Positions 1 through 30,523 of a stretch of 41,236 nt of DNA are shown here, piece after piece. The stretch is from a virus (Duplodnaviria > Caudoviricetes). Made by a program: the position numbers and the translations under genes. The stretch is from positions 1 through 41,236 of the IMG/VR virus record IMGVR_UViG_3300010362_000046. One strand, written 5' to 3'. The notes under the pieces were generated by a model. That model ran no database searches, was not told where the DNA came from, and worked only from the letters and a program-made list of their open reading frames with translations. Numbering within the stretch: the first letter of the stretch is position 1; each line of letters opens with the position of its first letter.

Positions 1-8
1 CGATTGCC

Positions 9-656: not shown

Positions 657-722
657 TGCACCACTTGCGCGGCGGACGGTGCGAACCTACGGCCCGAGCG
701 TGAACTCCCCGAGGAGGGCCGG

Positions 723-1640: not shown

Positions 1641-1654
1641 CCTGAGAGGCCGAT

Positions 1655-3626: not shown

Positions 3627-3684
3627 AATGTCCGAAATGTCGATTGCTTCGGATTCGGGGAGTCCGGTGCCACGATGACCGATC

Positions 3685-4538: not shown

Positions 4539-4804
4539 GCGTCGTTCTCGCCGCCCACCACGCCCAGCAGCAGCCAGCCGTCATGCCGGGCGACGACCTG
4601 CCCGCGCACCTGCGCGCGCTCCGGGCCGACGGCACGCCCGCGATCCGACTCGTCGAACCGGAGCCAGCACCCGTGCCGCCACAGCCACAGCGTGTCGTGC
4701 ACCAAGGCCGGTACGACCGGAAGGTGCCGGACTGGTGGATTGACGAGGACGAGGCCGCAGCCCAAGCCGACGGCGTGCTCGGCTACATGCGAGGGGTGAC
4801 GTAG
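4415..4804 (+). CDS. Tail assembly chaperone frameshift extension (T-like, -1 frame)
   Basis: Open -1 frame overlapping the chaperone 3' end and running to the tape measure start; no convincing start of its own. Confidence 0.6.
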   Translation, partial: YEQSVGLAQWAIDNWVGFDGQCALQGIDPLDLAAGRFLNLVSVVLAAHHAQQQPAVMPGDDLPAHLRALRADGTPAIRLVEPEPAPVPPQPQRVVHQGRYDRKVPDWWIDEDEAAAQADGVLGYMRGVT

Positions 4805-4808
4805 TCCG

Positions 4809-9383: not shown

Positions 9384-9386
9384 CCG

Positions 9387-12134
9387 TTGGCCGGAGTCGA
9401 CTACAACCCGCACACGCCGATCACGGTCGGCAACGAGTGGTACGCGTCCCGCGACCGGTCCGTCCCGCTCTCCTCGACTGTCGGCCGGGCCGCGCTCGTC
9501 GACGCGACCACGAGCGAGTCTGCCGACGCGGTCGCGATCCACGCACTCACCCGCCAGGGCCAGACCACCGACCGGCTCCTCGCCCGCTACGGCGTCGACA
9601 TCTACCGGGCCGCGGACATCAATGCCGGGCCGGTCAAGGTCGCCTACTCGCTCCCCGCCGCGGATGTCACGAGCGAAGTCGGGCTGATCACTGGCCCGAC
9701 CGCTGGGCAGCCCCGCTGGCAGATGCTCAACGACGACTTCGGCTCCGCCTACGCCAACGACTACGTGCTCCTCACCTGGAACGCGTCGTCGCCGATACCG
9801 GGCCGGGCGATCCTGCGGCTCCAGATGTCACCGACCTGGTGGGACTGGGAGGCCGGACGACGCGGGCAGCATGTCGTCGTCGACCTCTCCGACAAGCGGA
9901 TCATCGACATTCGCATCGGCATGAACACCGCCGCGCTCAACCCGGCGCAGCCGTGGTTCTACGGCCGCTACGACGTGCAAGGCGCAGCCTCACCGGGCGA
10001 CGGCTACGTGTTCGGCGAGGTCGGCTCCAACAAGGGTCTCGGCGTCCGCAACGACAACGTCATGGCAGCCCGCTACCTGTCGATGTTCGGCCGGGCGCAG
10101 CACCGCAACATGCAGTCACTTCGGCCACCCGACATCGACACGTTCGAGGTCGGCGGTCCCGGCTGGATCGGCGTCCACTTCGGTGGCGTCGCCCACCGCA
10201 ACTACGGCCCGTACCCGGCGTTCCTCGGTCTCTACAGCCTGACCGTCCAGGTGCTCTACACGACCGAGAAGCGGCTCGCGACCGGCTACACGAACGGCAG
10301 CGTGAATGCCGACCCGCAGTTCCCCGGCGAGTGGCTCAACGTCCCGCTCGAAAGCCCCTACAACGGGTCGCCGCTCCAGTGGTTCAAGGAGGCCGGGAAC
10401 CGCTACGTCATCTCCGTCCGGCAGACCTCGACGACCGGCATCCAGAACGACTGGCGGGGCCTCGACGCCGGGAAGACCACCGGCCACCTCCTCGACATGC
10501 TCCCGACCGTCTCCTCACGCGACATCGCGTTCGAGGGCGGCACCGCCTACCCGACCGCGGCGCTCCCGCAGGCGCAGCCGATCACGCCGGTCGGGACCCG
10601 CACCCCGGCGTACCTCATCAAGCTCGGCGCGGATGTCCTCGACGACAGCCAGCCGTACGTCCGGCCGATCTCCGTGTTCGTCTGGGGCAGTCAGAACACG
10701 CCGCTCAACGAGGTCGACGCCCGGCAGGCCCGGACCGCCGACCCGGACGTCATCACCGAGTCCATCGGTCTCGGCCAGGGCTTCTCGACCGGCGTCGGCA
10801 CCGCCGAGTACGGGATCGTCACCGTCGTCGCCCGCAACCACGTCAACATGCGGTATCTGAAGGAGCCGCTCACCGTGACCCTCGTCGACAGTGGCGGCAC
10901 CGCCGTCGGCTCCGGCGTCACGTTCCACCCCGAAGACATGAACGTCACGAAGTTCGGTGACGGCCTCTGGTACGTGATGTCGGCCCGCATGGAGGACGCC
11001 GCTGCGCTCGTTGCGGGCCAGAGTTACACGCTCACCGCGACGTCCGACGCCGATGTCGTCGCCCCGTGGGAACTGCTCCTCCTGACGACCGAGGAGGCCA
11101 CCGCGGCGACCGAGTCGTGGGGCACCGACGTCGACCATGCGACGCTCGTCACGGCCGGGACGCCGCCAGTGTCGACCCCGATCGCCTGGTTCGACGCGGC
11201 CTACAACTTGGGGCAGGTCCCACCGCAAGTCACCGGCGCTGCGTCCGAGCTACGCCTCATCGACGTCTCCCACGGTCTGGGCATCGCCAACGCTGACGTC
11301 TGCGGTCGAGGACAAGGGGCGTACGGCTGTGTCCTGTCCGCCCTCGACTACATCCTGCTCCGCTGGGACCAGACGATCCTCGACCACTTCGACCACTACG
11401 AGATCGAACGGGCCGAACCGATGGTCGAAGGATCGCAGCCGCTCATGTGGACGCCGATCGCGGTGATCGCCGACCCGGCCGTCATCTCGTTCGCCGACGT
11501 CGAGGTGCTCCGCAACCGGCCGACGTTCCACCGCATCCGGCAGGTCCGCACCGACGGCGGCTTCTCCGACTGGACCGTGTTCCCGCAGCAGATCGCGCAC
11601 CTCCCCGAGTTCGCGGTCGTGCTCGCCTCGAACTACCGGCCGGAACTCGCGGTCGCCTACTTCGACATGGCCCCGTTCGAGTGGGAGCCAGTCGACGGGA
11701 CCCGAGCCGAGACCCGGTACCTGTACGGCAACGACCGGGGCATCGTCCTGCGCGAGCACGAGGCGCGCGGCGACACGTTCACCCGGACGCTCCTCATCGC
11801 GTTCCGCGACCCGGCCATCAAGCAGGCACTGATCCCCGGTGGCCGGTCCGTGTTCGATCCGCTCGTGACCGTCGCGCACCTGCGTGACGTTCCCTACATC
11901 GCGTTCGTCGATCACTGGTCGCGGCGCTGGTGCACCGCACCACGCGTCACGCGACTGACCGAAGAAGAACCGGCTTCCGGCTACACGGCCGAGGTCGACT
12001 TCACCGAGGTCGCCGGACCGTCCCTCCTTCGCTTCGGCGAGGGCGGGCAGTCGGGCGGCGGCGGTCCGCAACCGCCAGGCACGCTCACCGGTTGGGATGC
12101 CGACCTGTGGGATGTCGACGACTGGGAGGCATGA
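9387..12134 (+). CDS. Large minor tail protein
   Basis: 915 aa directly after tape measure; FN3-like segment (LRWDQ...HYEIER...RIRQVRTDGGFSDW); WDADLWDVDDW C-terminus. Confidence 0.75.
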   Translation: MAGVDYNPHTPITVGNEWYASRDRSVPLSSTVGRAALVDATTSESADAVAIHALTRQGQTTDRLLARYGVDIYRAADINAGPVKVAYSLPAADVTSEVGLITGPTAGQPRWQMLNDDFGSAYANDYVLLTWNASSPIPGRAILRLQMSPTWWDWEAGRRGQHVVVDLSDKRIIDIRIGMNTAALNPAQPWFYGRYDVQGAASPGDGYVFGEVGSNKGLGVRNDNVMAARYLSMFGRAQHRNMQSLRPPDIDTFEVGGPGWIGVHFGGVAHRNYGPYPAFLGLYSLTVQVLYTTEKRLATGYTNGSVNADPQFPGEWLNVPLESPYNGSPLQWFKEAGNRYVISVRQTSTTGIQNDWRGLDAGKTTGHLLDMLPTVSSRDIAFEGGTAYPTAALPQAQPITPVGTRTPAYLIKLGADVLDDSQPYVRPISVFVWGSQNTPLNEVDARQARTADPDVITESIGLGQGFSTGVGTAEYGIVTVVARNHVNMRYLKEPLTVTLVDSGGTAVGSGVTFHPEDMNVTKFGDGLWYVMSARMEDAAALVAGQSYTLTATSDADVVAPWELLLLTTEEATAATESWGTDVDHATLVTAGTPPVSTPIAWFDAAYNLGQVPPQVTGAASELRLIDVSHGLGIANADVCGRGQGAYGCVLSALDYILLRWDQTILDHFDHYEIERAEPMVEGSQPLMWTPIAVIADPAVISFADVEVLRNRPTFHRIRQVRTDGGFSDWTVFPQQIAHLPEFAVVLASNYRPELAVAYFDMAPFEWEPVDGTRAETRYLYGNDRGIVLREHEARGDTFTRTLLIAFRDPAIKQALIPGGRSVFDPLVTVAHLRDVPYIAFVDHWSRRWCTAPRVTRLTEEEPASGYTAEVDFTEVAGPSLLRFGEGGQSGGGGPQPPGTLTGWDADLWDVDDWEA

Positions 12135-12137
12135 GAG

Positions 12138-12782
12138 ATGACCATGACCGGCTGGCTCGCTGACGTTGCGCCACAGCAACGCATCCGCAGCCCGTGGGGC
12201 AACGCGATCCGGGACCGGACGATCACGCCGTTCCCGACGGCCGCTGATCGCAACGCGGCGATCCCCGTCCCGGCCGCGGGGATGACCGTCTACATCACGA
12301 GCCTGCACCAGTTGCAGACCTGGAACGGCACCGCGTGGGTCGTGACCGGCACCGACCGGCAACCGTGGGGCCTCATCGGTATGAGTCAACTCACCGCGCC
12401 GACCGGTGCGTTCGACACGACGCCAGGCGAGGGTCTCGTCATCGCAGGCTTGCAGGTCGTGCACACGGCGGACGGCACTCGACGGGTGTCGATCTCGGTG
12501 CACATCCCGACGATCTACAACGCGACGGTGAACGGCGCGACCGTCGACACGTTCCTCGAACATGACGCCAACGTGACCAGCCCGCGGTTCCGGCTGAACT
12601 TCGCACGGCAGATCGCCTACAGCGCCGCCGACGCGGTCGCGGTGCACATCCGCCACGTGTGGGTCCCGAACGGTGTCAACCGGTACACGATCATGGCCCG
12701 CACCACCGCAGGCACCGCGCAGTTCTACGCGGCGACGACGGCACCGCTTCAGATGATCGTTGAGGACATCGGCCCGGTATGA
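12138..12782 (+). CDS. Minor tail / fibre-associated protein
   Basis: 214 aa; FPTAADRNAAIPVPAAGMTVY...WNGTAW motif common in actinophage tail proteins. Confidence 0.7.
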   Translation: MTMTGWLADVAPQQRIRSPWGNAIRDRTITPFPTAADRNAAIPVPAAGMTVYITSLHQLQTWNGTAWVVTGTDRQPWGLIGMSQLTAPTGAFDTTPGEGLVIAGLQVVHTADGTRRVSISVHIPTIYNATVNGATVDTFLEHDANVTSPRFRLNFARQIAYSAADAVAVHIRHVWVPNGVNRYTIMARTTAGTAQFYAATTAPLQMIVEDIGPV

Positions 12783-13888
12783 CCGCGGTCGTCTTCCACC
12801 ATCCCGAGTCGCTGTCGACCGAGGAACTCCTTGACCCGCGACCCGAGATCGGGCAACGGTTCGACCGCTTCGAGTTCGAGCTACTCGACTCGCAGTTGCG
12901 CCGGATCGGGGTCATCTTCCCGAGCACCGAGAGCGCACCGACGATCTCGGCGTCGACGGACCGGACCCAGATGCGGGACCTGTCGAACCTGGAGTTCACC
13001 AAGTCGGACTACGAGCACGTCGATCCGTTCCGCGACCGGCTCCGGCCCGTGTGCGTCCTCCAGAACGAGACCCGCTGGCCGCTCGGCGTCTACCTGTTCG
13101 GCGAGCAGAACCGGCAGGTCTCGACCCGCGACGTGACGTTCCAACTGAAGATGACCGACCAGGCGTTCATGCTCGACCAGAACCTCGCGCAGACGTTCTC
13201 GATCGGGAAGGGCGCGTCGATCGACAGTGCGTTCGTCGCCCTCGCGCACGCGTCCGGTGTCGCGCAGGTCCAGGTCGCTGGGCATCCGGCGTACGCGGCG
13301 GCACCGAAGGCGTACGCGGCGGGCACCTCGATCTACGACGCGCTGAAGGACATGGCGACCCTGATGGGTTGCCTCGCCCCGTACTTCGACAACAACGGCG
13401 TGTTCTGGGCGCGGGTCGCGCCCGACCCCGACGGGACCGGTAGCCCGCAGTTCACGTTCGGGCCGGGCCGGATCGTCGCGGACTCGATCGTCGAGACCGA
13501 CGACAGCTACAACGCCCCGAACCGGTACATCGTCACCGGCGACGGCACCGACAACCCCGTCTCCGGCTTCTTCGACGTCCCGACGTCCGCGCCGCACTCG
13601 ATCCCGCACCGTGGGTTTGTTGTCGCCGACACGCAGTCCGTCACTGGGATCACGACGGTTACGCAGGCCGCGAACGCTGCCCGCGTGAACTACACGCAGG
13701 ACACCCGCTCGTGGGAGAAGGTCGCGTTCGAGACGCTCCTCGATCCGCGCATGGACCTGTTCGCGCTGATCGAGTTCAACGGCTCGACCGGCCGGGGCCT
13801 CTACCTGGAGACCGGGTTCAACCAGACGCTGCGCTTCGACGGCCAGCACACGCACGAAGCGAACCGGCTGTGGGACCGGTTCGGATGA
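12779..13888 (+). CDS. Minor tail protein (baseplate hub-like)
   Basis: 369 aa; ATGA overlaps at both ends; PLGVYL, YFDNNGVF and YNAPNRYIV motifs. Confidence 0.7.
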   Translation: MTAVVFHHPESLSTEELLDPRPEIGQRFDRFEFELLDSQLRRIGVIFPSTESAPTISASTDRTQMRDLSNLEFTKSDYEHVDPFRDRLRPVCVLQNETRWPLGVYLFGEQNRQVSTRDVTFQLKMTDQAFMLDQNLAQTFSIGKGASIDSAFVALAHASGVAQVQVAGHPAYAAAPKAYAAGTSIYDALKDMATLMGCLAPYFDNNGVFWARVAPDPDGTGSPQFTFGPGRIVADSIVETDDSYNAPNRYIVTGDGTDNPVSGFFDVPTSAPHSIPHRGFVVADTQSVTGITTVTQAANAARVNYTQDTRSWEKVAFETLLDPRMDLFALIEFNGSTGRGLYLETGFNQTLRFDGQHTHEANRLWDRFG

Positions 13889-14622
13889 CGCACACCGACC
13901 CGACGCTGCTCCCGGAGATGATCTCGCTCGGCGTCGCCGAGGCGCTCCGCAACCGGCCTCGCGACACGCTGATCCGGACCGGGACGGTCGTGTCGCTCGA
14001 TCCCGACAACCTGACCGTGAAGGTCGCGGTCGATGGCGACCCGCCCGAGGCTGCCGACGTCGAGATGCTCACGCTCATGCCGTTCCCCGAGGAGCTACCG
14101 CCGGTCGGGGTGCGGGTCTTCGTCATGTTCGCTCCCGGCGGGCTGGCATTCTGCCTCGGCCAGTTCGGCGGCATCCCCGATCCGGGCATGGTCCCGGTGT
14201 ACGGCGCGGGCGCGATCCTCGCGGCAGCGACGACCACCGGTGACTCGACGAACACGTCGAACACGCCGGTCGGCATCCCCGGCGGCAACGTGACGTTCGT
14301 CCTCTCGTCGGCGCGGAACATCCGGGTCGACATCAAGGTCGCCGCCCACCAGTCGGGCCTCAACCGGCTCGGTGCGCTCGGCCAGATCGACGGCGTGAAC
14401 GTCGCGCCGATCATGGTCGACACCGACCGGGTCAACGTGAACTACTGGCTGTCGGGCTGGGGCTGGACGACCCTCGAAGCCGGGCAGCACACGGCCAGCC
14501 TCATGAACTTCAACCCGGACAACGCGGGTGTCGGCACGATCCTCACGGGCGCGCAGATCATGGTCACCGATCTCGGACCGACCCCGACGTCGGGTGGGGG
14601 AACGCCACCAATCGTTCCGTAG
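13885..14622 (+). CDS. Minor tail protein (spike-like N-terminus)
   Basis: ATG overlapping previous stop; RTGTVVSLD...PPVGVRVFV...LGQF N-domain followed by a beta-rich domain. Confidence 0.65.
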   Translation: MTHTDPTLLPEMISLGVAEALRNRPRDTLIRTGTVVSLDPDNLTVKVAVDGDPPEAADVEMLTLMPFPEELPPVGVRVFVMFAPGGLAFCLGQFGGIPDPGMVPVYGAGAILAAATTTGDSTNTSNTPVGIPGGNVTFVLSSARNIRVDIKVAAHQSGLNRLGALGQIDGVNVAPIMVDTDRVNVNYWLSGWGWTTLEAGQHTASLMNFNPDNAGVGTILTGAQIMVTDLGPTPTSGGGTPPIVP

Positions 14623-19149: not shown

Positions 19150-19347
19150 AGCGCGGACTCCAGGCCCAAACCCCCGCGGGCGGTACGGGCGCGGACACTG
19201 GAGTCCGCTGCTCCACCTTACCCTCGTCCATCGTGTTGTAGTGACGCAAGGGCGACTTCAGCTTGGCGTGGTTGCTGGCATCGCGGCTGGTCGCGGCCTA
19301 TTGCGCGCGCCGTCTTCCGGTAGTGGAATCACACGCGCTCCAACCGC

Positions 19348-19388
19348 GAAACGCCCCGGCGACCGTGCAGGAGACCGGGGCGTTTCTT
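19348..19388 (+). terminator. Intrinsic terminator/attenuator-like hairpin
   Basis: Perfect 12-bp stem GAAACGCCCCGG (19348-59) / CCGGGGCGTTTC (19375-86) followed by TT. Confidence 0.55.
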
Positions 19389-19448
19389 CCCTTGAGAGGT
19401 GGCTCTCATGGTACCCGACCCGCAAGCACCGAACACGGCCAGCATCTC

Positions 19449-20291
19449 GTGAGCGTCCAGTGGATGGGCGTTATCTTCGACCACGCCAGAGGCGTGAAGG
19501 GCGCGGAACGGCTCGTGCTCCTCTCGCTCGCGAACCACGCGAACGAGGATGGCTCGTGCTTTCCCGGTATCGCGACCATCGCACGGGAAGCCGGACTCAC
19601 CGAGTCCCACGTCCAACGCGTGATGGCGACACTCGTCCGCGACGGCTTCGTGACTCGTCGTCTCAACGGTGCGCCGATGGAGATGCTCGCGCACAGTCGT
19701 CCCGACCGCCGCCCGAACCTGTACCAACTTCAGCGGCACATCATCGAACGGGGTCGCGCAGATGTGGCCCCGCCGAAAAGTGCACGGGGTCGCGATCCAC
19801 GCGGGCACGGGGTCGCGATCCACGCGGGCACGGGGTCGCGCATTTCGCGACCCGAACCATCAGAAGAACCATCAGAGAACCGTCAAGAGATTGCGGAGCC
19901 TTCGGCTCTCGCCCTCCCTGGCCTAGAGGAACCGCGAACAGCAGAAGGGAAGAAGAACAGAAGACCCCGCCCGCCGGACGTTGTGTTCGAGGCGTTGTGC
20001 GAGGCGCTCGGTGCCAAGCCGCGGTTGCTGACGAAGACGGAGCGGGCGAAGTTCAACACGGCGGCGCAGCAGCTACGCGATGTCGACGCGACGCCGGGCG
20101 AGATCGCCGACCGGGCAGCCGAGTACGTCCGTCGCTATGGGACGGCCAGGCTGACGGCGATGGCGCTCGTCGGGCAGTGGTCATCGTTGGCCGTCCGGCC
20201 GGTACCGAGCCAGTCGTCAGGACCGCCGGGCTACGAGGAGCCTTACAACTGGAGCAACGTGACGTACCACAACGAGATCGAGGGGCTGTGA
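19449..20291 (+). CDS. Replication initiator with N-terminal HTH
   Basis: ERLVLLSLANHANEDGSCFPGIATIAREAGL...V...L is a typical phage initiator HTH; contains internal iterons; coupled to helicase. Confidence 0.85.
   Translation: MSVQWMGVIFDHARGVKGAERLVLLSLANHANEDGSCFPGIATIAREAGLTESHVQRVMATLVRDGFVTRRLNGAPMEMLAHSRPDRRPNLYQLQRHIIERGRADVAPPKSARGRDPRGHGVAIHAGTGSRISRPEPSEEPSENRQEIAEPSALALPGLEEPRTAEGKKNRRPRPPDVVFEALCEALGAKPRLLTKTERAKFNTAAQQLRDVDATPGEIADRAAEYVRRYGTARLTAMALVGQWSSLAVRPVPSQSSGPPGYEEPYNWSNVTYHNEIEGL
19748..19890 (+). repeat. Iteron array, probable replication origin
   Basis: 23-nt tandem GCACGGGGTCGCGATCCACGCGG at 19782 and 19805, partial copies at 19828 and 19748, inverted CGCGACCC at 19846, then A-rich GAACC(A/G)TCA x3. 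Confidence 0.8.
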
Positions 20292-21673
20292 GTCACGTCG
20301 TCCCGTTCGATCGGACCGGCAAGAAGTTCCCACCGTTCCCGGCGCAGTCCGAACCGCAGCAGCATCGTGCGGCGGGGAAGCCACCGGAAGGTGAGCGCCG
20401 CCCGAACCACCCGCCGCACGACATCTCCGTCGAGGCCGATGCGCTCGCGCTCATGCTCCAGGAACGGTCCGGTGCGGAGCATGTGTTCTCCGAGTGCACG
20501 GCGCTCGACTTCTACCTGCCGGAGCATCGGGCGATTGCGGGTGCGATCGAGGTGCTCCACCAGGCCGAGACGCCGACGACGTCCGCGTCGATCGTGGCGG
20601 CGAAGGTTCGGGAGTGTGGCTTCGACTCTCGGCCGGACGCGGCCAGGATCGAAGCGATCCGGCTGGCCGCAGCGCCATCACTGCCGGGCGAGGTGTACGG
20701 CCGGGAGATCCGGCGGCTGTCGGCATGTCGCGCGCTGTGGCAGTCCTCGGACGCGCAACGCCAACTCGCATGGAGTGGCGACCTGGATGGGGCGCTGACC
20801 GAGCGTGAGCGCGACGTGCCGCTGCCACGTGAGGTGCTCGGACGTCCGACCCGGATCGGGGAACTCCTCGAACGGCCGATCCCCGCGTACGACTGGCTCG
20901 TCGAGTCCCTGTTCGAGGTTGGCGACCGGGTGATCGTCACCGGCATGGAAGGCGGCGGGAAGACGACCCTCCTCCGGCAGGTCGCGACCTGCTGCGCGGC
21001 CGGATGGCATCCGTTCCGCTGCGTCCCGATCCCGCCGGTCCGGGTCCTGTACGTCGACCTCCAGGACGGCGAGAACCAAAACCGTCGCGAGTATCGGCGG
21101 CTCATCGACTACCTGCGCCGCTGCCACCGGTGGGACGACCGCCGGTTCGCGCTCCGGCTCCGGCTGGCCGGGATCGACCTGACGACCGCGTCGGATGTCG
21201 CCTGGCTGCATGAGGCGATCGACGAGCACCAGGCGGAACTCGTCTGCATCGGCCCGATCTACAAGTCGTACCGGGGGTCTGACCGGCGGGGGAAAGACTC
21301 GGAGGAGACCGCGCAACTGGTGCAGGACGAACTCGACCGGCTCCGGGCCGCGTACCGGATCGCGTTCTTCATCGAAGGCCACTCCCCCCACGGGACAGCC
21401 GGAGACCGAGCCGGGTACCGGATGCGCGGCTCGGCGTCATGGCAGGGCTGGCCTGAGCAGGTGCTCGGCATGGCTGGACTGCCCGACAAGCCCGGCGAAC
21501 CGAAGGCCGTCGAGCTACGCCGGTCGCGCGGTGATCGAGACCGGTCGTGGGATCGGTGGCCGCGCACCCTGTTCGAGGGTCGGCCAGGATCGTTGCCGTG
21601 GACCGGGAACGTGAGTCCGCCACCGAAGGATGACGGCTCGACCCTGCTCCGGCCCGACGATGACGTCTTCTGA
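20288..21673 (+). CDS. Replicative helicase (DnaB N-terminal domain plus RecA-like AAA domain)
   Basis: PPHDISVE...DFYLPEHRAI (DnaB-N); Walker A GMEGGGKTT; VLYVDLQ; RGSASW. Confidence 0.85.
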   Translation: MSHVVPFDRTGKKFPPFPAQSEPQQHRAAGKPPEGERRPNHPPHDISVEADALALMLQERSGAEHVFSECTALDFYLPEHRAIAGAIEVLHQAETPTTSASIVAAKVRECGFDSRPDAARIEAIRLAAAPSLPGEVYGREIRRLSACRALWQSSDAQRQLAWSGDLDGALTERERDVPLPREVLGRPTRIGELLERPIPAYDWLVESLFEVGDRVIVTGMEGGGKTTLLRQVATCCAAGWHPFRCVPIPPVRVLYVDLQDGENQNRREYRRLIDYLRRCHRWDDRRFALRLRLAGIDLTTASDVAWLHEAIDEHQAELVCIGPIYKSYRGSDRRGKDSEETAQLVQDELDRLRAAYRIAFFIEGHSPHGTAGDRAGYRMRGSASWQGWPEQVLGMAGLPDKPGEPKAVELRRSRGDRDRSWDRWPRTLFEGRPGSLPWTGNVSPPPKDDGSTLLRPDDDVF

Positions 21674-22280
21674 GCTAGTGAGGCATCATGTGCTCGTGCC
21701 CGACGAGTGGGATCTGTTCGCCGAGAGTGTCCGGCGGGCCGAGCGAGCCGTAGCCGTGGAGGCAGTCAGCACCGTGCCAGGCAAGCGAGCCGACTTCCAG
21801 GAGTGCACCGTCGTAACGGAGCCAGACGAGACTTGCGCGAGCACCACGCAACCTGAGCGAGCCGACCGCCGAGCTAGTGCCGTTGTAGGTGAGCGAGCCG
21901 CCAGTCCGGAGTGCGCCGAGTCCGGGAAGCGAGCCGTGGGTCTGAAGCACACCGCGATGCACGAGCGAGCCGCAAGCCAAGCGGGCACCGTGTCAAGGAA
22001 GCGAGCCACGCCAGAAGCGAGTACCGACGACTACGAGCGAGCCGCTTCTACTGCGAGTACCGATGACGGCGAGCGACCCGTAACCAGCGAGTGCACCGAG
22101 ATCATCGAGGACGACTGGGTCGAGATCGCATCCGTCCTCGGCACCGACACGATCCCCGCCCCGATGGCCTACGTCCTCACCCGCTGCATCGACCGGATGC
22201 TCGAACGCGACGAAGTCTCCCCGACCGCCCCCTGGCTCGCGATCGAGTACCTCGCCGCCGACTACCTGAGCGCCCCATGA
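21660..22280 (+). CDS. Hypothetical protein whose middle is encoded by the TIGR-like array
   Basis: Frame open through all 10 units giving ERA-x4-(S/C)T-x3 12-aa repeats; overlaps helicase stop and is ATGA-coupled to the next ORF. Confidence 0.55.
   Translation: MTSSELVRHHVLVPDEWDLFAESVRRAERAVAVEAVSTVPGKRADFQECTVVTEPDETCASTTQPERADRRASAVVGERAASPECAESGKRAVGLKHTAMHERAASQAGTVSRKRATPEASTDDYERAASTASTDDGERPVTSECTEIIEDDWVEIASVLGTDTIPAPMAYVLTRCIDRMLERDEVSPTAPWLAIEYLAADYLSAP
21741..22106 (+). repeat. TIGR-like guide RNA array A (10 units, 36-nt period)
   Basis: RAGCGAGCC-like repeat at 21741, 21783, 21819, 21855, 21891, 21927, 21963, 21999, 22035, 22071; second repeat (GAGTGCACC/GCGAGYACC) 18 nt after each from unit 2 on; unique ~9-nt spacers. 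Confidence 0.9.
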
Positions 22281-22585
22281 CCCCCGCCGTCGAAGCGATG
22301 CTCACCAACCCCCAAGCCCCCACTGCCCCCCTCCACGAGTTCCTCGACGCCTACCGCGCCGACGAGAACCTCTGGTGGAAACTCCCGTCCGGCCACCACC
22401 AGAACCTGTTCGACGAAGCCATCGACACCCTCGACCTCGTCGACGACCTCACCGAACTCCGCCGCGCCGTCCGCCGCGCCCTCAACGAACTCGGCGTCCC
22501 CGACGCCCACTACCCCGCCCCCGTCACCAACGCCGTCGAGATCCTCACCGACGCCCTCGGCCAAACCCGACCAGAACACTCATGA
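22277..22585 (+). CDS. Hypothetical protein
   Basis: 102 aa, ATGA overlaps at both ends. Confidence 0.65.
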   Translation: MTPAVEAMLTNPQAPTAPLHEFLDAYRADENLWWKLPSGHHQNLFDEAIDTLDLVDDLTELRRAVRRALNELGVPDAHYPAPVTNAVEILTDALGQTRPEHS

Positions 22586-23163
22586 ATCCGTGGGACCGCC
22601 GCGACAGCGAAACGAGCAAGTCCTACGACGCCTTCCAGCGATACCTCGCCCTCGGCCCCACCCGCAGCTACGTCAAGATCGTCGAGCAATACGAACGCCC
22701 GGCGAGCTACCACCGGCAGATCGAACGCTGGTCGAGTGAGAACGACTGGGTCGACCGCGCCCTCGCCTACGACGAACACCTCTGGGAACAAGACCGCCAA
22801 GAACAGATCGAAGAAGTCCGGCTCATGCGCCGCCGCCACAACCTCCTCGCCGTCACCGCCATCGAAAAAGCCGCCGAACGCATCAAGAACATCGAACCCG
22901 AACGTCTCTCCGTCAAAGACGCCATCGCCCTCGCCGAACTCGGCACCCGCCTCGAACGCGCCACCCGCGACCCCGGCGTCCCCGCCATCGAACTCACCCA
23001 GATCACCGTCGGCCCCTCCGGCTTCGACCTCCTCGAAGCCCTCCGCCGCTCCCCCCGCCTCGTCGACCTCATGGACGAAGTCGCCGTCTCCATCCCCGGC
23101 TTCGACGGCCGCACCGAACGCGCCGCCCGTCAGCGCATCCTCGATGCCGCTCCGGGCGAGTGA
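22582..23163 (+). CDS. Terminase small subunit (probable)
   Basis: WDRRDSETSKSYDAFQRYLALGPTRS...RWSSENDWVDRALAYD; immediately upstream of terL. Confidence 0.75.
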   Translation: MNPWDRRDSETSKSYDAFQRYLALGPTRSYVKIVEQYERPASYHRQIERWSSENDWVDRALAYDEHLWEQDRQEQIEEVRLMRRRHNLLAVTAIEKAAERIKNIEPERLSVKDAIALAELGTRLERATRDPGVPAIELTQITVGPSGFDLLEALRRSPRLVDLMDEVAVSIPGFDGRTERAARQRILDAAPGE

Positions 23164-24634
23164 CCTCGCACGCCACGGCTGGCGACTCCGACCCGACCTC
23201 CTCGGCGAACGGCTCTCCGCAGGCGACTACCAACGACCCCGCCACGTCCGCCACCTCGGCGCCCAGTTAGCGAAAACCATCGCGGCCGGGAACGGCCGAC
23301 TCCTCGTCACCGCCCCACCCCGCCACTCCAAATCCGAGACGTGCTCCCACTGGACCCCCACCTGGATCGAGCACCTCGACCCGAGAACCCGCGTCCTCCT
23401 CGCCTCCTACGAAGCGACCATCGCCGACGAATGGGGCCGCGCCGTTCGCAACACCCTCTCCGAACATCCCGAACTCGACGTCACCGTCTCCGACGACTCC
23501 TCCGCCGCCATGCGCTGGCGTACGAGCGAAGGCGGCGGCATGTGGACCGCCGGAGTCGGCGGACCCCTCACCGGCCGCGGCGGCGAACTCCTCATCATCG
23601 ACGACCCGTTCCGCAACCTCGCCGACGCCATGTCCGCCGTGAAACGCGACGCCTGCTGGAACTGGTACAAGGCCGTCGCCCGCACCCGCCTCCACCCCGG
23701 CGGCACGATCATCGTCATCACGACCCGCTGGCACACCGAAGACCTCGCCGGTCATCTCCTCGAACAAGGCGACTTCGACCACCTCCGCTTCCCCGCCCTC
23801 GCCGAACCCGACGAAGCCGACCGGCAACTCATCGACGCCGGTGTCCTCGACCTCGACGACTGGCGCGACCCGATCGGCCGCGCGTACGGCGAACCCCTCT
23901 GGCCCGAACGCTTCGATCTAGAGGCGCTAGAAGCCCTCAGGAGCGACGTCGGCGAGATGTGGGCCGGGCTATACCAGCAACGCCCCACGGACCTCCAGGG
24001 CGAGCTATTCGCCCGTCAGAAGTGGAACTACGCCGACGTCCCCCCCGCCGACCTCACCGCCCTCGTCCGCCGCTTCGACCTCGCCGCCACCAAAGAAGGC
24101 GGCGACTGGACCGCCGCCGTGCTCGAAGCCCGCGACGGCCAAGGCCGCACCTACATCCTCGACGTCCGCCGCGTGCAAGCCGACCCGGCCGACGTCGAAG
24201 CGTTCTGCCGGTCCGTGTGCGAAGACGACCGGAACCTCTACCGTGGCCGGGTGCGGGTGCGGGTCGAACAGGAACCAGGCGCGTCGGGCGTCGCCCTCCG
24301 CGACCGCTACGTCCGTCAGGTCCTCGCCGGGTTCCCGGTCACGTTCGCCCCGTCGTCGGGAGACAAGGTGATCCGGGCGCTCCCGTTCGCGGCGCAGGTC
24401 GGTGCCGGGAACGTCACGCTCTGCAAGGTCGCGCACCCGATGCTCCCGATCCCCGAAGACCGGCCGATCTGGATGACCGAGTTCGTCGAAGAACACGCCG
24501 CGTTCCCGCGCGGCGGCAACGACGACATGGTCGACGCCGCCTCCCTCGCGTTCAACGATCTCGTCGCCCACGCGCCGCAGCGGGCACGGGCGAAGTCGAT
24601 GTCGGACCGGCAGGTCCTCGGCCTGCTCCGGTGA
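23144..24634 (+). CDS. terL: Terminase large subunit
   Basis: PPRHSKS (Walker A), LLIIDDP (Walker B), TRWHTEDL, YQQRP, FDLAAT, EQEPGASG, NDDMVDA nuclease motifs. Confidence 0.95.
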   Translation: MPLRASDLARHGWRLRPDLLGERLSAGDYQRPRHVRHLGAQLAKTIAAGNGRLLVTAPPRHSKSETCSHWTPTWIEHLDPRTRVLLASYEATIADEWGRAVRNTLSEHPELDVTVSDDSSAAMRWRTSEGGGMWTAGVGGPLTGRGGELLIIDDPFRNLADAMSAVKRDACWNWYKAVARTRLHPGGTIIVITTRWHTEDLAGHLLEQGDFDHLRFPALAEPDEADRQLIDAGVLDLDDWRDPIGRAYGEPLWPERFDLEALEALRSDVGEMWAGLYQQRPTDLQGELFARQKWNYADVPPADLTALVRRFDLAATKEGGDWTAAVLEARDGQGRTYILDVRRVQADPADVEAFCRSVCEDDRNLYRGRVRVRVEQEPGASGVALRDRYVRQVLAGFPVTFAPSSGDKVIRALPFAAQVGAGNVTLCKVAHPMLPIPEDRPIWMTEFVEEHAAFPRGGNDDMVDAASLAFNDLVAHAPQRARAKSMSDRQVLGLLR

Positions 24635-24786
24635 GGAACTGGTTCGTCGCCGACGAGCGGCCGTGGCGCTGCCCGGTCTGCTGGGAACGGACCAACAAGC
24701 GGGTCAGGTGGTGGCGGATCTACCGGTGCAAGCTGGGTCACCGGTGGACGCGGCTGCCGATCCCCGGCCGTCTCCGCTGGGAGTAG
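24631..24786 (+). CDS. Small zinc-ribbon protein
   Basis: GTGA overlap; CPVC...YRCKLGHRW. Confidence 0.5.
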   Translation: MRNWFVADERPWRCPVCWERTNKRVRWWRIYRCKLGHRWTRLPIPGRLRWE

Positions 24787-25774: not shown

Positions 25775-26062
25775 ATGCCAAAGCCACACTCCGTCTCCGT
25801 ACAAGATGCACTGTGGGACGAAGCGATGGCCCGTGCGAAGTCCGAGAAACGGTCCCTGTCGGGGACGATCTCGACGCTGCTGCGCGGCTGGCTCGACGGC
25901 CAGATACACCTCGACACGTCCGCTCCGGCGTCGAACGGGACGCAACCCGACGACGAGTGCCTCCACCGGCAGCTTCGGTTCCTGCGGGCCGCGCAACGCT
26001 ACAAGTGCGAAGCCTGTGGACAACTGTTCGCGCAGCGGCCGTCCCGCGCCACCGTTCACTAA
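25775..26062 (+). CDS. Ribbon-helix-helix DNA-binding protein with C-terminal Zn ribbon
   Basis: HSVSVQDALWDEAMARAKSEKRSLSGTISTLLRGWL fits RHH; CLH...CEACG. Confidence 0.7.
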   Translation: MPKPHSVSVQDALWDEAMARAKSEKRSLSGTISTLLRGWLDGQIHLDTSAPASNGTQPDDECLHRQLRFLRAAQRYKCEACGQLFAQRPSRATVH

Positions 26063-26064
26063 CG

Positions 26065-26439
26065 GTGCTGGTCGAGCCGGTCGTCGCGCTCGTCATCGCG
26101 CTCGCCGTCTACCGGGTCGCGCGCGGCCTCACGTCCGACTCGCTGTTCGAGGGCTGGCGGGACCGGCTCGAACGGTGGGGCTACCAGGAGGACCGGCTCG
26201 CGTACCGCAACGTCGAACTGAAAGGGCGGGGCCACTCGAAGTACCTGACGCTCACGCGGGGGAAGCTGGTGGACCTGCTGACCTGCCCGATGTGTCTCAG
26301 CTTCCACGGCGCCTGGATCGCGCTGTGTGTGTGGACGACGTCATGGCCGTGGCAACTCGGCTGGAAGGGCTGGACCCTGGCGTTCGGGATTGCCGGGGCC
26401 TGCGCCCTGTTCTTCGGCTGGGATGCCTACGAGGAGTGA
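26065..26439 (+). CDS. DUF1360-like membrane protein
   Basis: LAVYRVARGLTSD...LLTCPMCLS plus hydrophobic segments. Confidence 0.7.
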   Translation: MLVEPVVALVIALAVYRVARGLTSDSLFEGWRDRLERWGYQEDRLAYRNVELKGRGHSKYLTLTRGKLVDLLTCPMCLSFHGAWIALCVWTTSWPWQLGWKGWTLAFGIAGACALFFGWDAYEE

Positions 26440-26580
26440 CCGGGCTTCGGTCATCGCTGCGGCCCACCGGTCGTCCCAGCCAGGGAGTTCGGCGGTCGCG
26501 GCTTCTTCGTCGAGTGCGACGATGCGGGCGAGGAGTTCGAGCACGGCGACCTGACCGCGCGCGAATGGTTCGGTGCTCAC
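26341..26580 (-). CDS. Hypothetical protein
   Basis: GTG start supplied by the last repeat (GTGAGCACC) of array B; 3' end overlaps the convergent gene. Confidence 0.45.
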   Translation of the reverse strand: MSTEPFARGQVAVLELLARIVALDEEAATAELPGWDDRWAAAMTEARSLLVGIPAEEQGAGPGNPERQGPALPAELPRP

Positions 26581-26886
26581 GGGTGAGACGGCTCGCTCAA
26601 GTACGTCGGTGTGCTCCCAGAACACGGCTCGGCTGGGACGGTGCTCACCATGATCTCGGCTCGCGCTTTGCGGCAACGGTGCTCACACACGCAACGGCTC
26701 GCTCTCGAACTTCGGTGCCCTGCCATCTTCACGGCTCGCTGTCGAGACTCGGTGCACTCCGATACCACGGCTCGCTCGGTGACGACGGTGCCCGTCGTAC
26801 GTTTCGGCTCGCTCCCACAGCACGGTGCCCTCAAAGACATCGGCTCGCTCACGCTTCCCGGTGCGCTTCGCACCTACGGCTCACGC
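26572..26886 (-). repeat. TIGR-like array B (about 8.5 units)
   Basis: + strand GGCTCGCTC-like at 26590, 26626, 26658, 26696, 26733, 26769, 26806, 26842, 26878 alternating with GGTGCNCTC-like repeats. Confidence 0.9.
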
Positions 26887-27018
26887 CCGCGGTTGACGGC
26901 GATCGCTCCGTTCTTCTCCAGCCTCGTGATCGCGTTCGCGACGGCGTTCCCCGGCGACGACCAACGCGCAGAACAGGCCGACGAGGACTCCGGCAGCGAA
27001 TGCGGTTGCGGGCTTCAC
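26881..27018 (-). CDS. Small single-TM protein between arrays
   Basis: GTG directly after a GGGGAGCGAGCC repeat; AFAAGVLVGLFCALVVAG; its TGA lies in the first repeat of array B. Confidence 0.5.
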   Translation of the reverse strand: MKPATAFAAGVLVGLFCALVVAGERRRERDHEAGEERSDRRQPRA

Positions 27019-27102
27019 GGCTCGCTCCCCTGAGTACGGTGCGACACTTGGCTCACGGCTCACTCTTGACGTGCGGTGCTCTCCCCACTTACCGGCTCAG
27101 AA
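27019..27102 (-). repeat. TIGR-like array C (2 units)
   Basis: Repeat 1 at 27019, 27057, 27094; repeat 2 at 27038, 27075. Confidence 0.7.
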
Positions 27103-27316
27103 CGACACGACAGTGGATCTCGCAGTTCGCCGGGAGCACGTCGGCGAGGAACGACGACCCGTTGAACTCCTCGGCGGTGACGGTCACCTCGTAGACGTCG
27201 AGGCCATCGCGCGACGTCCGGACCCACTCGGGATCGAGCGGGATCGTGGTCTTCGCTCCGGTCTCGGGATCGAGACGCATGAGGCGCAGACCTTCGGGCT
27301 TACAGCGATCTGTCAT
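27089..27316 (-). CDS. Hypothetical protein
   Basis: 75 aa; TACACT box 8 nt upstream of ATG. Confidence 0.6.
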   Translation of the reverse strand: MTDRCKPEGLRLMRLDPETGAKTTIPLDPEWVRTSRDGLDVYEVTVTAEEFNGSSFLADVLPANCEIHCRVVLSR

Positions 27317-27590
27317 CGGCCGCTAGTGTAGCCGCCTCGACTTCGTCGACCTGGGTCCATTCGCGTGCGACGTACACCCACAGTTGCTCGTCGTGGTACT
27401 CGGCGGACACGATCCGTTCATCGAGACCGAGGCGGATCTCGTGGTCGGCGACCGTGATGATCAGCCGAACCGAGCCGCGCCGACCGAAGTAGACGCCCGG
27501 CTCGTCGCTCTTGTAGTCCGGTGCACTCGCTGTCGTCGGCTCGCTCGAATCCTCCGGTGCGCGCATGTCCTTACGGCTCGCTCGCTTCAT
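27300..27590 (-). CDS. Hypothetical protein (N-terminus overlaps array D)
   Basis: 96-aa ORF; start uncertain. Confidence 0.5.
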   Translation of the reverse strand: MKRASRKDMRAPEDSSEPTTASAPDYKSDEPGVYFGRRGSVRLIITVADHEIRLGLDERIVSAEYHDEQLWVYVAREWTQVDEVEAATLAADDRSL

Positions 27591-27655
27591 GTGGTGCGGT
27601 CACGGGAATCGGCTCGCTTCCTCTCTCCGGTGCCCTCCGGCAAGGCGGCTCACAA
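27499..27655 (-). repeat. TIGR-like array D (4 units)
   Basis: Repeat 1 at 27499, 27538, 27575, 27611, 27647; repeat 2 at 27520, 27556, 27593, 27629. Confidence 0.85.
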
Positions 27656-27962: not shown

Positions 27963-28079
27963 CTACCTCCGGTGATGCCAGGCCGTGCAGGCGATCGCGC
28001 CGAGGAGTAAGCCCATGACGAACCAGGCGGCGACGGCCATGACCTCGGCCTCTCGTGCGGTCGGTGCTGGCTGCATCAT
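27963..28079 (-). CDS. Small TM peptide (38 aa)
   Basis: Hand translation MMQPAPTAREAEVMAVAAWFVMGLLLGAIACTAWHHRR; starts inside the last repeat of array E. Confidence 0.4.
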   Translation of the reverse strand: MMQPAPTAREAEVMAVAAWFVMGLLLGAIACTAWHHRR

Positions 28080-28232
28080 GCTCGCTCGATGTTCTCGGTG
28101 CGCTGACTCACGACGACTCGCTCTCTACTGGCGGTGCTCGCAGTTGCCGACGGCTCGCTCGGTCATGTCGGTGCGCTCACTCACGTCGGCTCGCTCACCT
28201 ACCCCGGCGCGCTCGCTACTGGTGGCTCACGC
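28063..28232 (-). repeat. TIGR-like array E (about 4.5 units)
   Basis: Repeat 1 at 28079, 28115, 28152, 28188, 28224; repeat 2 at 28063, 28097, 28133, 28170, 28206. Confidence 0.85.
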
Positions 28233-28454: not shown

Positions 28455-28807
28455 GCGCCCTCCTCGCCTTCCTCCTCAGCCTGTAGCTGCGCCTCGATCT
28501 CCGGCCGGATCTCGGGCACGTCGGTCCAGCCCGGCCACCGTTCCGCGTCCTCGGCCTTGCCGTCGAGTTCGGCCCACCGCCAGATCTCCTCGTCGGCCAT
28601 GATCCGGCCCGACTTCGCGCGCAGCACATCGTCGTCGGGGAGCCGTTCGACGAGGGTCACCTCGAACACGCCGTCGGGTAGCTCCCGGACCGGCAGGACG
28701 AGACGGCCGACCTCACCGGTGCCGGGCCGCTTCCCGCACCGACGGCAGATCGGGTTCCCGCCGTTGAACTTCCAGGCATGCCGGTGCGGCATCCAGCGCG
28801 GGATCAT
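28451..28807 (-). CDS. Hypothetical protein with HxH...CxxC motif
   Basis: ATG overlapping the Tas stop (ATGA); 118 aa. Confidence 0.6.
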   Translation of the reverse strand: MIPRWMPHRHAWKFNGGNPICRRCGKRPGTGEVGRLVLPVRELPDGVFEVTLVERLPDDDVLRAKSGRIMADEEIWRWAELDGKAEDAERWPGWTDVPEIRPEIEAQLQAEEEGEEGA

Positions 28808-29670
28808 CCGAACGACGGCGGCGCGATGTAGTGCGCGTGACCGCCCTCCGGCGTCAAGATGTACGGCTTCGGCGGCGGCTCCCCGTACCGGTCCTGGTAC
28901 ATCACGTGATGCAGGTGAGAGAGGAACAGCTTCACCGCCCACCGCCGGGCGCGCAGGTCGAGCCGCCCGACCGGCAGATGCCCGGACTCGTAGATCGCCC
29001 GTGTCGCCGCGTCGGTGATCTTCCGCTGCTCCAACGTCTCGAACGCGGTCCGCTGGTTGTGCTCCGACGCCGGACCGATCACCTTGCCGTCGACGTCGCG
29101 GCCGTCGCGTGTCAGTTCGTACTGCTTCCGTTCCCGGTACATCCGGCCGTAGAAGGCGTTCTCCCGGCCCGAGACCTTCACGAAGCTGTCGCCCAGCTTC
29201 CAGCACAGGACCTTCAGTTCGGCGTTCCACGGGCGCCGCTCGCCCTTGCCCCACTTCTTCGTCGGGTCGAGACCCGCGAACCGCCAGATGTGCCCGACGG
29301 TCGGTGCCCGCTCGATGTCGATGTGGGCGAGGAGACCGGCCGCGAGGACCGGTCCGACGCCAAGCTGGGCGCGTGCCCACTCCCCCGCGGTCTGCGACAT
29401 CGAGAAGACGTCGAGGACCGAGACCATCTGCTTCTCCAACGCGCCGATCTGCCGGGCGAAGTGATCGACGATCGCCGTCGGTCGTTCCGCCGCGGCGAGC
29501 GACCGGGCCTGGTTGTTCAGCGCGATGCGATGTTCCTGCAACTCGTAGTAGAGCGCGACGAGTTCTCGGGCCTCGTCGCGTCCGACGAGCGCACCGGCGC
29601 TGCGGACGTCGCGGCCCAGCTTGTCGACGGCGGAGAGCAGGTCGGGGGTGGCGTCGATGACGTCGGTCAT
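28804..29670 (-). CDS. TasA-like IS110/Nop-domain RNA-binding protein without RuvC domain
   Basis: IS110-type coiled coil (RELVALYYELQEHRIALNNQ), GVGPVLAAGLLAHI, WRFAGLDP, WNAELK, RARRWAVKLFL; no N-terminal DEDD domain; flanked by 36-nt dual-spacer arrays. Confidence 0.85.
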   Translation of the reverse strand: MTDVIDATPDLLSAVDKLGRDVRSAGALVGRDEARELVALYYELQEHRIALNNQARSLAAAERPTAIVDHFARQIGALEKQMVSVLDVFSMSQTAGEWARAQLGVGPVLAAGLLAHIDIERAPTVGHIWRFAGLDPTKKWGKGERRPWNAELKVLCWKLGDSFVKVSGRENAFYGRMYRERKQYELTRDGRDVDGKVIGPASEHNQRTAFETLEQRKITDAATRAIYESGHLPVGRLDLRARRWAVKLFLSHLHHVMYQDRYGEPPPKPYILTPEGGHAHYIAPPSFG

Positions 29671-29988: not shown

Positions 29989-30285
29989 TCACTGTAGTGA
30001 GGTGTACGACGCTCGGGAGTGCTCCACGAGCCGGACGTTGACGTAGTCGGAGGTGGTCGAGACCTTGAGGAGGCAGGCCGGGCAGAGGACCTTCGGGCCG
30101 ACCATCACTGCGGGGGCGAGGCCGGACGACGGCGTGTAGCCGATGGCGAGGCCGGAGCCGGAGCATCGCTCCTGTTCATCGGTGCTCTCTCGGAACGCGG
30201 CTCGCTCACTTGTAACGGGACTCTCGGTACGAGCGGCTCGCTCGATGTTCTCGGCGCGCTCACGTTGTGCGGCTGTGCGATACAT
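29989..30285 (-). CDS. Hypothetical protein with array-encoded N-terminus and CxxC
   Basis: ATG 7 nt after a TACACT box; frame open across array F. Confidence 0.45.
   Translation of the reverse strand: MYRTAAQRERAENIERAARTESPVTSERAAFRESTDEQERCSGSGLAIGYTPSSGLAPAVMVGPKVLCPACLLKVSTTSDYVNVRLVEHSRASYTSLQ
30163..30279 (-). repeat. TIGR-like array F (3 units)
   Basis: Repeat 1 at 30163, 30199, 30235, 30271; repeat 2 at 30181, 30217, 30253; exact 36-nt spacing. Confidence 0.8.
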
Positions 30286-30290
30286 GGCCG

Positions 30291-30304
30291 CTAGTGTAGC
30301 ACAC
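30291..30304 (-). promoter_or_regulatory. Extended -10 promoter upstream of array F, HTH and Tas
   Basis: Reverse complement GTGTGCTACACTAG, same motif as at 35574, 36572 and 37876. Confidence 0.7.
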
Positions 30305-30310
30305 CCGGCG

Positions 30311-30523
30311 TCAGATCGGGAGCGAGGTCTGCCCCGGCGACAACCCGGACCGCAACTTCGAGATGCAGTCGTTGCACGCCCACCGGCCCGTCGGCTCCTC
30401 ACACACGATCGCGTGGGTCCCGCCCTCGCGGCGTTTCTTCACCCAGCCGGTCACCTCGAACCACTCCTCGGCCGGGCCGTGCGAACCGTCACCGTCGAAC
30501 GTGCACTGGCGATAGTCGGGCAT
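30311..30523 (-). CDS. Small Cys-containing protein
   Basis: ATG 6 nt after a TGCGACACT box; 70 aa. Confidence 0.5.
   Translation of the reverse strand: MPDYRQCTFDGDGSHGPAEEWFEVTGWVKKRREGGTHAIVCEEPTGRWACNDCISKLRSGLSPGQTSLPI

Follow-up and report, generated by a model that had tools for sequence, protein, structure and literature searches.

Among the tandem interspersed guide RNA (TIGR) systems described to date, dual-repeat arrays come closest to the locus considered here, and those with 10-nucleotide (nt) repeats located beside tasA and tasParB genes match it in architecture (Faure et al., 2025; PMC12045711). As far as the cited text goes, the first survey mined 5 kb on either side of tas genes (PMC12045711), and in-frame intragenic guide RNAs (tigRNAs) are reported inside tas coding sequences, mostly as stem-loop arrays (Xu et al., 2026; bioRxiv 10.64898/2026.09.09.750476). 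In SpTasH, Y289 and H296 in a flexible C-terminal region are described to cleave the precursor within the edge repeat (PMC13421893). The cited account reports this Tyr/His dyad as conserved across dual-repeat systems and TasA proteins as repressors of transcription (bioRxiv 10.64898/2026.09.09.750476). Here, we analyze a ten-unit dual-repeat TIGR array that is situated in frame within an open reading frame (ORF) upstream of the terminase genes in the IMG/VR virus record IMGVR_UViG_3300010362_000046, a high-GC soil phage with a CheckV completeness of 55%. The window is the entire record and comprises 41,236 bases.

Compared with the dual-repeat TIGR-TasA systems, as these are set out in the cited parts of the survey (PMC12045711), the window is alike in its ten units (5-15 are usual), its nuclease-free Nop-domain TasA and its phage host. 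Two distinct alternating repeats within the 8-12-nt range, a unit of about 36 nt and a Tas gene in the same genome, by which such systems are recognized, were all found. Within the same scope, the window differs in having spacers of 8 nt instead of the usual 9 nt and in the location of the array, which lies 6.7 kb from tasA, on the other strand and inside a protein-coding ORF. It also lacks a terminator, with the ORF running on, whereas a terminator is typical of the described arrays, albeit not universal (PMC12045711). We propose that this array, in frame in a terminase-adjacent gene, is likely read by ribosomes to give a floppy linker in front of a conserved domain and would also yield 36-nt guides via TasA. 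We assign this reading as a whole a probability of roughly 0.5.

A Ten-Unit Array in Frame Ahead of a Conserved Domain

The ORF that harbors the array (host ORF) contains the features listed below. GC3 denotes the GC content at third codon positions, and log-odds per codon are in-frame values of a model trained on the window's long genes.

21741..22106, plus strand: ten-unit dual-repeat TIGR array, read in the ERA frame of host ORF 21660..22280
21660..22280, plus strand: host ORF, 206 residues from the ATG at 21660 (public gene call P0002), 196 residues from the GTG at 21690 or 216 residues from the ATG at 21630
21690..21740, plus strand: short N-terminal coding piece ahead of the array, 17 codons, GC3 0.88, +0.14 log-odds per codon
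22107..22277, plus strand: conserved C-terminal domain, 57 codons, GC3 0.93, +0.43 log-odds per codon

The units start at positions 21741, 21783, 21819, 21855, 21891, 21927, 21963, 21999, 22035, and 22071 and end at 22106; the first measures 42 nt and the remaining nine 36 nt. The order within a unit is 10-nt edge repeat, 8-nt spacer A, 10-nt loop repeat and 8-nt spacer B. An earlier note on this DNA had described ten units of 36 nt, except for one of 42 nt, between helicase and terminase genes, about 6.7 kb from the tas gene and on the opposite strand. The unit calls confirm this layout, and tasA (28804-29670, minus strand) is located 6698 nt beyond the array end. In the window, 41 copies of the 7-nt edge-repeat core were counted, as opposed to 21.6 ± 4.5 in shuffled sequence; none of 100 shuffles reached 41. 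Eight copies of the core between 21743 and 22043 follow each other at steps of 36 or 72 nt, with one step of 42 nt. Tandem Repeats Finder, run on the window, returned no row for 21741-22106, as is expected because the repeats alternate with unlike spacers. All ten spacer pairs are distinct and none is in common with the other arrays of the window or of the repeat family described below; likewise, a search for guides duplicated in the window or common to the family found none. The terminase-side array belongs to the TasA system of this phage and is genuinely of the TIGR type.

Translation of the host ORF across the array yields 12-residue ERA...S/T repeats, which the earlier note had read from the open frame and which the translation of ORF 21630-22280 bears out. 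The possible starts of the host ORF lie beside the stop codon of the helicase-like ORF (21671-21673). Among them, the GTG at 21690 is preceded by a GAGG at 21680-21683, 6 nt upstream, and is situated 17 nt past this stop codon. At the other end, the host ORF stop (22278-22280) shares a four-base overlap with the ATG at 22277 of a 102-residue ORF. The layout at either end agrees with the coupling to both neighbors that had been noted for the host ORF.

The C-terminal domain exhibits the strongest codon signal of the neighborhood, and this signal sets in directly behind the array. Between that point and the ATG at 22166, in-frame ATG, GTG or TTG codons are absent, and the nearest upstream in-frame starts, ATG 21957 and GTG 21990, are located inside the array. 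Consequently, the domain needs translation through at least the last units. Pfam searches of the host ORF at E values up to 0.1 gave no match, and a ParB_N domain is lacking; similarity to Nop or Tas proteins was not found either.

The C-Terminal Domain and Its Array-Less Homologs

A tblastn search against 50,697 phage records matched a single phage, Faecalibacterium phage FP_Brigit (two records; E 7e-8), in which the last 54 residues of the ParB-like protein YP_009797043 are 37% identical and 65% similar to the host ORF domain. The gene for this protein is situated immediately upstream of the small terminase subunit gene, and no TasA was found in FP_Brigit. The same domain (33% identity) ends a 186-residue ParB_N protein in one locus of the repeat family, L016, where the gene is flanked by an in-frame array ORF on one side and the large terminase subunit gene on the other. 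A three-way alignment of window, FP_Brigit and L016 contains 11 invariant columns, all of which are kept in the window domain. Judged from these comparisons, the C-terminal domain of the host ORF, with 55 residues, is real and conserved.

A HMMER pass over 1.84 billion representative proteins (E up to 0.001) returned 66 matches, 65 without the window's own protein. The C-terminal domain was the sole matched part in 61 of these 65, within about 35 residues of their own end. These homologs measure 49-379 residues, and six of them carry ParB_N and three a phage Dam-like domain; 22 have only 49-104 residues, and some of these may be fragments. Each of the 61 contains two or fewer ER-type triplets and therefore none has the repeat block. 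The earlier note had proposed to look for homologs without the block, and all 61 turned out to be of this kind. In an alignment with ten short homologs, the first ~140 residues of the window protein have no counterpart. Given its absence from the homologs, the repeat block is an insertion, or a replacement of an N-terminal part, specific to this lineage. The other four matches cover the array-coded part only; their gene calls run across other arrays, and in P0045 the array-coded part follows a RecT domain.

It was considered whether the domain represents the C-terminus of TasParB. This was not supported for L029, the family locus with the closest TasA, as the TasParB-like protein encoded there shows no similarity. 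A shared ribbon-helix-helix start of the array ORFs of L013, L016 and the window was likewise rejected: Pfam gave no match, L013 and L016 were similar to each other at only E 0.04 in a small database, and no similarity was seen for the window.

No close relative of the locus was found in phage, IMG/VR or metagenome contig searches. Neither megablast of 19241-24700 nor tblastn of TasA matched any phage, and IMG/VR searches with the host ORF and the small and large terminase subunits, as well as a metagenome contig search with the large subunit, yielded only the window's own contig or weak fragments. Homologous-protein searches and the protein atlas gave the window's own protein alone or nothing usable.

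TasA and the Tas-Side Arrays

The tas gene and five further arrays of the same unit, all on the minus strand around tasA, are located on the other side of the terminase genes:

28804..29670, minus strand: tasA, 288-residue solo Nop-domain Tas protein with a conserved C-terminal Tyr270/His278/His280 loop
29667..29984, minus strand: helix-turn-helix protein directly upstream of tasA (weak Pfam helix-turn-helix matches; phrog_597)
26563..26850, minus strand: TIGR array of 8 units (36, 37, 36, 37, 38, 34, 34, and 36 nt)
26992..27065, minus strand: array of 2 units (38 and 36 nt; the second with a degenerate loop repeat)
27511..27619, minus strand: array of 3 units; ORF 27300-27590 (minus strand) begins within it, in another frame
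28052..28214, minus strand: array of a partial unit and 4 units (36, 37, 36, and 36 nt)
30172..30261, minus strand: small array of a partial unit and 2 units of 36 nt, its ERA frame inside ORF 29989-30402 (minus strand)

Against PDB sequences, TasA matches 9mty_A (a 331-residue chain deposited as an IS116/IS110/IS902 C-terminal-domain protein; E 2.8e-12) and TasH (E 2.3e-8), the match beginning at residue 39, and phrog_4285 is matched over the full length (E 7e-41). An ORF of 288 residues leaves no space for a nuclease domain, and neither HNH nor RuvC is present, which identifies the protein as a TasA. Among 21 homologs, His278 is invariant and Tyr270 and His280 are nearly so. This Tyr/His loop is presumably equivalent to Y289/H296 of SpTasH.

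Irregular units, which had been noted for one intergenic array, are present in the window's other arrays, with lengths of 32, 34, 37 and 38 nt, and the array at 30172-30261 is indeed a second in-ORF array with 36-nt units, read in the same ERA frame as the terminase-side array. Two further ORFs touch these arrays. ORF 27300-27590 (minus strand), which has 96 residues and a coding signal, reads the last units of array 27511-27619 as SEP...AP. ORF 25806-27194 (plus strand; 462 residues) runs antisense across two tas-side arrays; the codon model backs only 26065-26439 (DUF1360), and the ORF is probably spurious because the antisense frames of arrays are poor in stops family-wide.

The Repeat Family in IMG/VR

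A scan of IMG/VR with an exact pattern (edge repeat, gap, loop-repeat end, gap, edge repeat) identified 86 stretches in 85 loci, some of which are overlapping pieces of one contig. A TasA homolog is encoded in 70 of the 86 loci searched (the 85 and L007), with 47-61% identity among the matches listed. The family consensus, derived from 1053 units of 36 nt, follows the order 10 + 8 + 10 + 8 nt; its repeat positions are almost invariant and its spacers are devoid of information content. Unit positions 1-9, 19-21, 23 and 26-27 are at least 88% conserved. Spacings of 36 nt account for 944 of 1226 in the family. In L029 (TasA identity 61%), a gene with ParB_N and HTH_ParB domains is located directly upstream of tasA.

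Arrays read in the ERA frame recur in the family. L070 (record G004; 86,757 bases, direct terminal repeats, 100% complete) contains two arrays of 22 and 18 units, in which every 36-nt unit is stop-free in the ERA frame. Searches of this record by protein, with a 21-sequence profile and with phrog_4285 detected no TasA; its arrays are orphan arrays or array-derived coding repeats. The public gene calls P0006, P0040, and P0045 cross other ERA-frame arrays and join them to domains that look real, namely RecT in the case of P0045 and a C-terminus rich in Cys and His in that of P0006. Several ERA-frame array ORFs end in short Cys-containing tails, namely CPAC in window ORF 29989-30402 (minus strand) and paired Cys or His in L013:6495-6989 (minus strand) and L070:1314-2654 (minus strand). 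These tails may form a small zinc-ribbon-like module; a Pfam match was not found for them.

Is the Frame Kept by Selection?

Across the terminase-side array, the ORF frame contains no stop codon, compared with five and four in the other sense frames and one, one and four in the antisense frames. All nine spacings are multiples of three, as opposed to six of 14 in the window's other arrays (Fisher P = 0.006), the sole length change is one of 6 nt, and the array shares its reading frame with the downstream domain, which lacks a separate start codon. Regular lengths (0.78 to the power of 9-10), an open frame and the correct phase would coincide by chance with a probability of about 0.01, estimated after the fact. 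In the family, 14 of 74 arrays with at least six 36-nt units are wholly stop-free, including arrays of 19, 16 and 15 such units, compared with 8.7 expected. Hydrophobic residues are rarer at the free codons of open arrays (15.7 vs. 21.2%; P = 0.012), a weak difference that may reflect base composition only.

However, several results weigh against a selected frame. In the ERA frame, codons 4 and 10 of each unit start with a fixed G and codons 1-3 and 7-9 consist of repeat, which leaves four codons in each unit as the possible places for a stop. The frame was open in 0.24 of the shuffles of the array's own spacer letters and in 0.35 with family spacers, and pooled per-unit rates gave a chance of 0.12. 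The 36-nt unit is the family's standard (77% of spacings). The 122 array codons show no codon bias (GC3 0.70, flat in all phases; -0.07 log-odds per codon), and free-codon GC3 is 0.54 in open and 0.53 in closed arrays of the family. Family-wide stop avoidance in the ERA frame was rejected, as 0.81 of 1066 units are stop-free compared with 0.825 expected; in the other frames, the corresponding values are 0.71 and 0.53. Selection on the array frame, which the earlier note had proposed, is thus partly supported: spacings, the 6-nt change and the start-less domain argue for it, whereas an open frame is not unusual by chance and 36 nt is the standard unit length.

A Proposed Working of the Array and Its Alternatives

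The proposed working comprises four steps, all of them inferred. First, the array would be part of the helicase-to-terminase transcript, given that neither promoter-like nor terminator-like sites were found nearby, including at the array end (22106). Second, ribosomes would read through the array, and the resulting protein would combine a long ERA/ST linker, probably disordered, with the C-terminal domain; read-through would maintain translational coupling into the 102-residue ORF and both terminase subunit genes (small, then large) and would shield the transcript from polarity. Third, TasA made from the opposite-strand operon would bind both kinds of repeat (edge and loop) and cleave within the edge repeats by means of its C-terminal Tyr/His loop, as in SpTasH. 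Cleavage would free guides from the units whose repeats are intact, six or seven in number, and the message copy concerned would be cut ahead of the terminase genes. Fourth, the guides would direct nuclease-free TasA to DNA, resulting in a transcription block.

The main rival, possible though less probable, would leave only the translation step standing. In this case, an array taken up in frame by the terminase-side gene would still be translated but would no longer provide working guides, surviving only since in-frame, disorder-prone sequence is harmless and frameshifts would kill the domain. The state of the repeats speaks for such a relic and against the array as a guide source: all nine 36-nt units fall below the family median of repeat quality (percentiles 4-44), and their median is 24.1 bits compared with 31.3 bits for tas-side units. 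The edge repeat of unit 3 is degenerate and nearly lost, units 4 and 6 have weak loop repeats, and unit 10 carries one edge mismatch and is not followed by a full edge repeat. Owing to these eroded repeats, guide output may be low or nil. The array had been called the cleanest of the window, which is true of its regularity in length but not of its sequence. Erosion occurred by substitution only and indels are multiples of three, as protein-level constraint alone would give. Furthermore, the complete 86.7-kb record G004 holds its two long stop-free arrays without a detectable TasA, indicating that array-derived coding repeats can be kept in the absence of the effector. A search for guide targets within the window (one half exact, the other with up to two mismatches, both strand arrangements, gaps of 0-4) yielded only a trivial match inside the array itself, compared with a mean of 5.5 for re-paired controls; the geometry is our own reading of the published rule.

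Other observations fit a relic less well. Edge repeats close to the consensus persist in six or seven units and good loop repeats in several, the quality gap to the tas-side units is not significant (Mann-Whitney P = 0.17), and degenerate units occur in the tas-side arrays, too. Each spacer differs from all others, as in working arrays, and the sense strand of the array is the messenger RNA strand. Contigs of three soil DNA runs provide no population evidence: X1, probably the source sample, covers the array with no differences listed there (two contig pieces each differ by one letter); X2 and X3 do not cover the array.

A second alternative, which we consider improbable, is that the array is not translated at all, the ORF being accidental, the gene disrupted and the domain the remnant of a young pseudogene; the array would then be a non-coding guide precursor at most. 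The chance of an open ERA frame (0.12-0.35), the 36-nt length of 77% of family units and the lack of codon bias within the array are all compatible with this scenario, as is the AlphaFold2 single-sequence model of the host protein, which is poor throughout (mean pLDDT, the predicted local distance difference test score, 41.5; residues 17-154 below 50). Translation may also start inside the array, at ATG 21957 or GTG 21990, a further point against a fully translated linker. Against it, the domain retains 11 of 11 invariant columns and has a GC3 of 0.93. The ORF is in phase with this domain, has a start with a ribosome-binding-like GAGG and a stop overlapping the next start, and both the regular spacing relative to the same phage's other arrays (P = 0.006) and the joint chance of about 0.01 argue against an accident.

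Finally, an ordinary protein repeat of 12 ERA...S/T residues unrelated to guide RNAs, which the open ORF and the regularity at the protein level might suggest, is refuted by the family data and has virtually no probability, as conservation is at the nucleotide level and includes third codon positions and a rare arginine codon, the residues between the repeats are free to vary, and elsewhere the 36-nt unit is found out of frame, interspersed with units of 37 and 38 nt and with numerous stops, near tasA as well as in most of the 113 distinct family arrays of at least three units.

The reading in which the array would be both translated and processed can be extended further. Phage TIGR arrays in translationally coupled late operons might be kept ribosome-readable, with TasA loading and translation competing for a single transcript and guide biogenesis severing the message directly ahead of the terminase genes, an RNA-level switch that would tie guide supply to the timing of DNA packaging. 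We regard this extension as rather doubtful.

The Link to Terminase Operons

Of the 11 family arrays that precede a large-terminase gene and run in its direction, five are fully open, compared with seven of 79 others (P = 0.005); with the window left out, the terminase-proximal count is four of 10 (P = 0.019). This enrichment was found after the fact, with large terminases sought using 11 query proteins in 6-kb flanks, which weakens it as support for a translated array. Large-terminase matches were present in 19 of 66 loci. In all 18 non-window loci with such a match (including L013, L016, L017, L026, L039, L057, L069, L072, and L087), the arrays are co-directional with the terminase gene. L069 exhibits the gene order helicase-like gene, tasA, array, helix-turn-helix gene and small terminase subunit gene. 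The gap between replication and packaging genes may be a usual home of this TIGR-TasA family.

A coding signal in frame with the array was detected in the array flanks of L013, L016, L092, L045, and L026; it was absent in L087, L085, L073, and L086, and upstream of the array in L070. The array ORFs of L026 and L087 run into the next gene with a four-base stop/start overlap, as in the window.

In the window, the array is flanked by the following genes:

19241..21673, plus strand: helicase-like ORF (AAA_25, DnaB N-terminal domain)
22277..22585, plus strand: 102-residue ORF of unassigned family, stop overlapping the next ATG
22582..23163, plus strand: terminase small subunit (phrog_6299, E 7e-22)
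23144..24634, plus strand: terminase large subunit (phrog_38, E 1.6e-85; Terminase_6C)

The helicase-like ORF may represent two genes, 19449-20291 and 20288-21673; the codon model splits it into two. Within the 5' part of this 810-residue ORF, positions 19782-19890 contain 2.6 copies of a perfect tandem repeat of 23 nt and, behind it, a GC-rich palindrome and an 11-12-nt unit present three times, an iteron-like arrangement that is perhaps a replication origin. The terminase genes (22582-24634) are set apart from the tail genes (window 1-14600), and the TIGR-TasA island (24.7-30.5 kb, minus strand) comes after the large subunit gene. No portal or capsid gene was recognized past the terminase in this record, which is estimated to be 55% complete. 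The scans detected neither Rfam families nor tRNAs.

Comparison With Known Systems

In a full-text literature search, with supplements and TIGRSafari outside its scope, no paper joined tigRNA with terminase, and "TIGR array" together with intragenic led only to Xu et al. (2026). In print, in-frame arrays are described only for tas genes; what is new here is a dual-repeat array in an unrelated, remote gene with array-less homologs. Guides written inside genes are thereby extended from the effector gene to an unrelated and distant phage gene. Arrays can be situated well outside the flanks mined by the first survey, 6.7 kb from tasA in the window and about 18 kb in L013 (genome 92% complete). Because they lie outside the 5-kb tas flanks, remote in-ORF arrays may be under-counted, and the TIGRFinder survey, which is based on tas loci, may also miss them. 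The link to terminase operons offers a reason for keeping an array translatable, namely coupling and polarity. In addition, a single ORF together with TasA would represent a simple system for studying whether a single RNA serves both ribosomes and a guide-processing protein.

As far as the intragenic tigRNAs are set out in the cited text (Xu et al., 2026; bioRxiv 10.64898/2026.09.09.750476), the window resembles them in that guide units are placed in frame and the reading frame is intact; the protein part concerned may be disordered here, too. Both raise the same question of whether message and guides derive from one transcript or from separate ones. In the cited cases, however, the host gene is tas itself, whereas here a dual-repeat array occupies an unrelated terminase-side gene far from tas. 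The neighborhood of tasA also differs from that of TIGR-tasParB loci, as no ParB_N gene is located beside tasA in the window, unlike in L029. With the terminase-adjacent ParB-like proteins of the FP_Brigit type, the window protein has the C-terminal domain in common, as well as its place just upstream of the terminase genes; yet it lacks ParB_N and carries the array-coded block in its place. Eukaryotic box C/D snoRNAs (small nucleolar RNAs) are Nop-domain-bound guide RNAs that sit in introns and are cut from transcripts also serving another gene. The likeness to the window is an analogy only, since the array described here is located not in introns but in codons that are probably translated.

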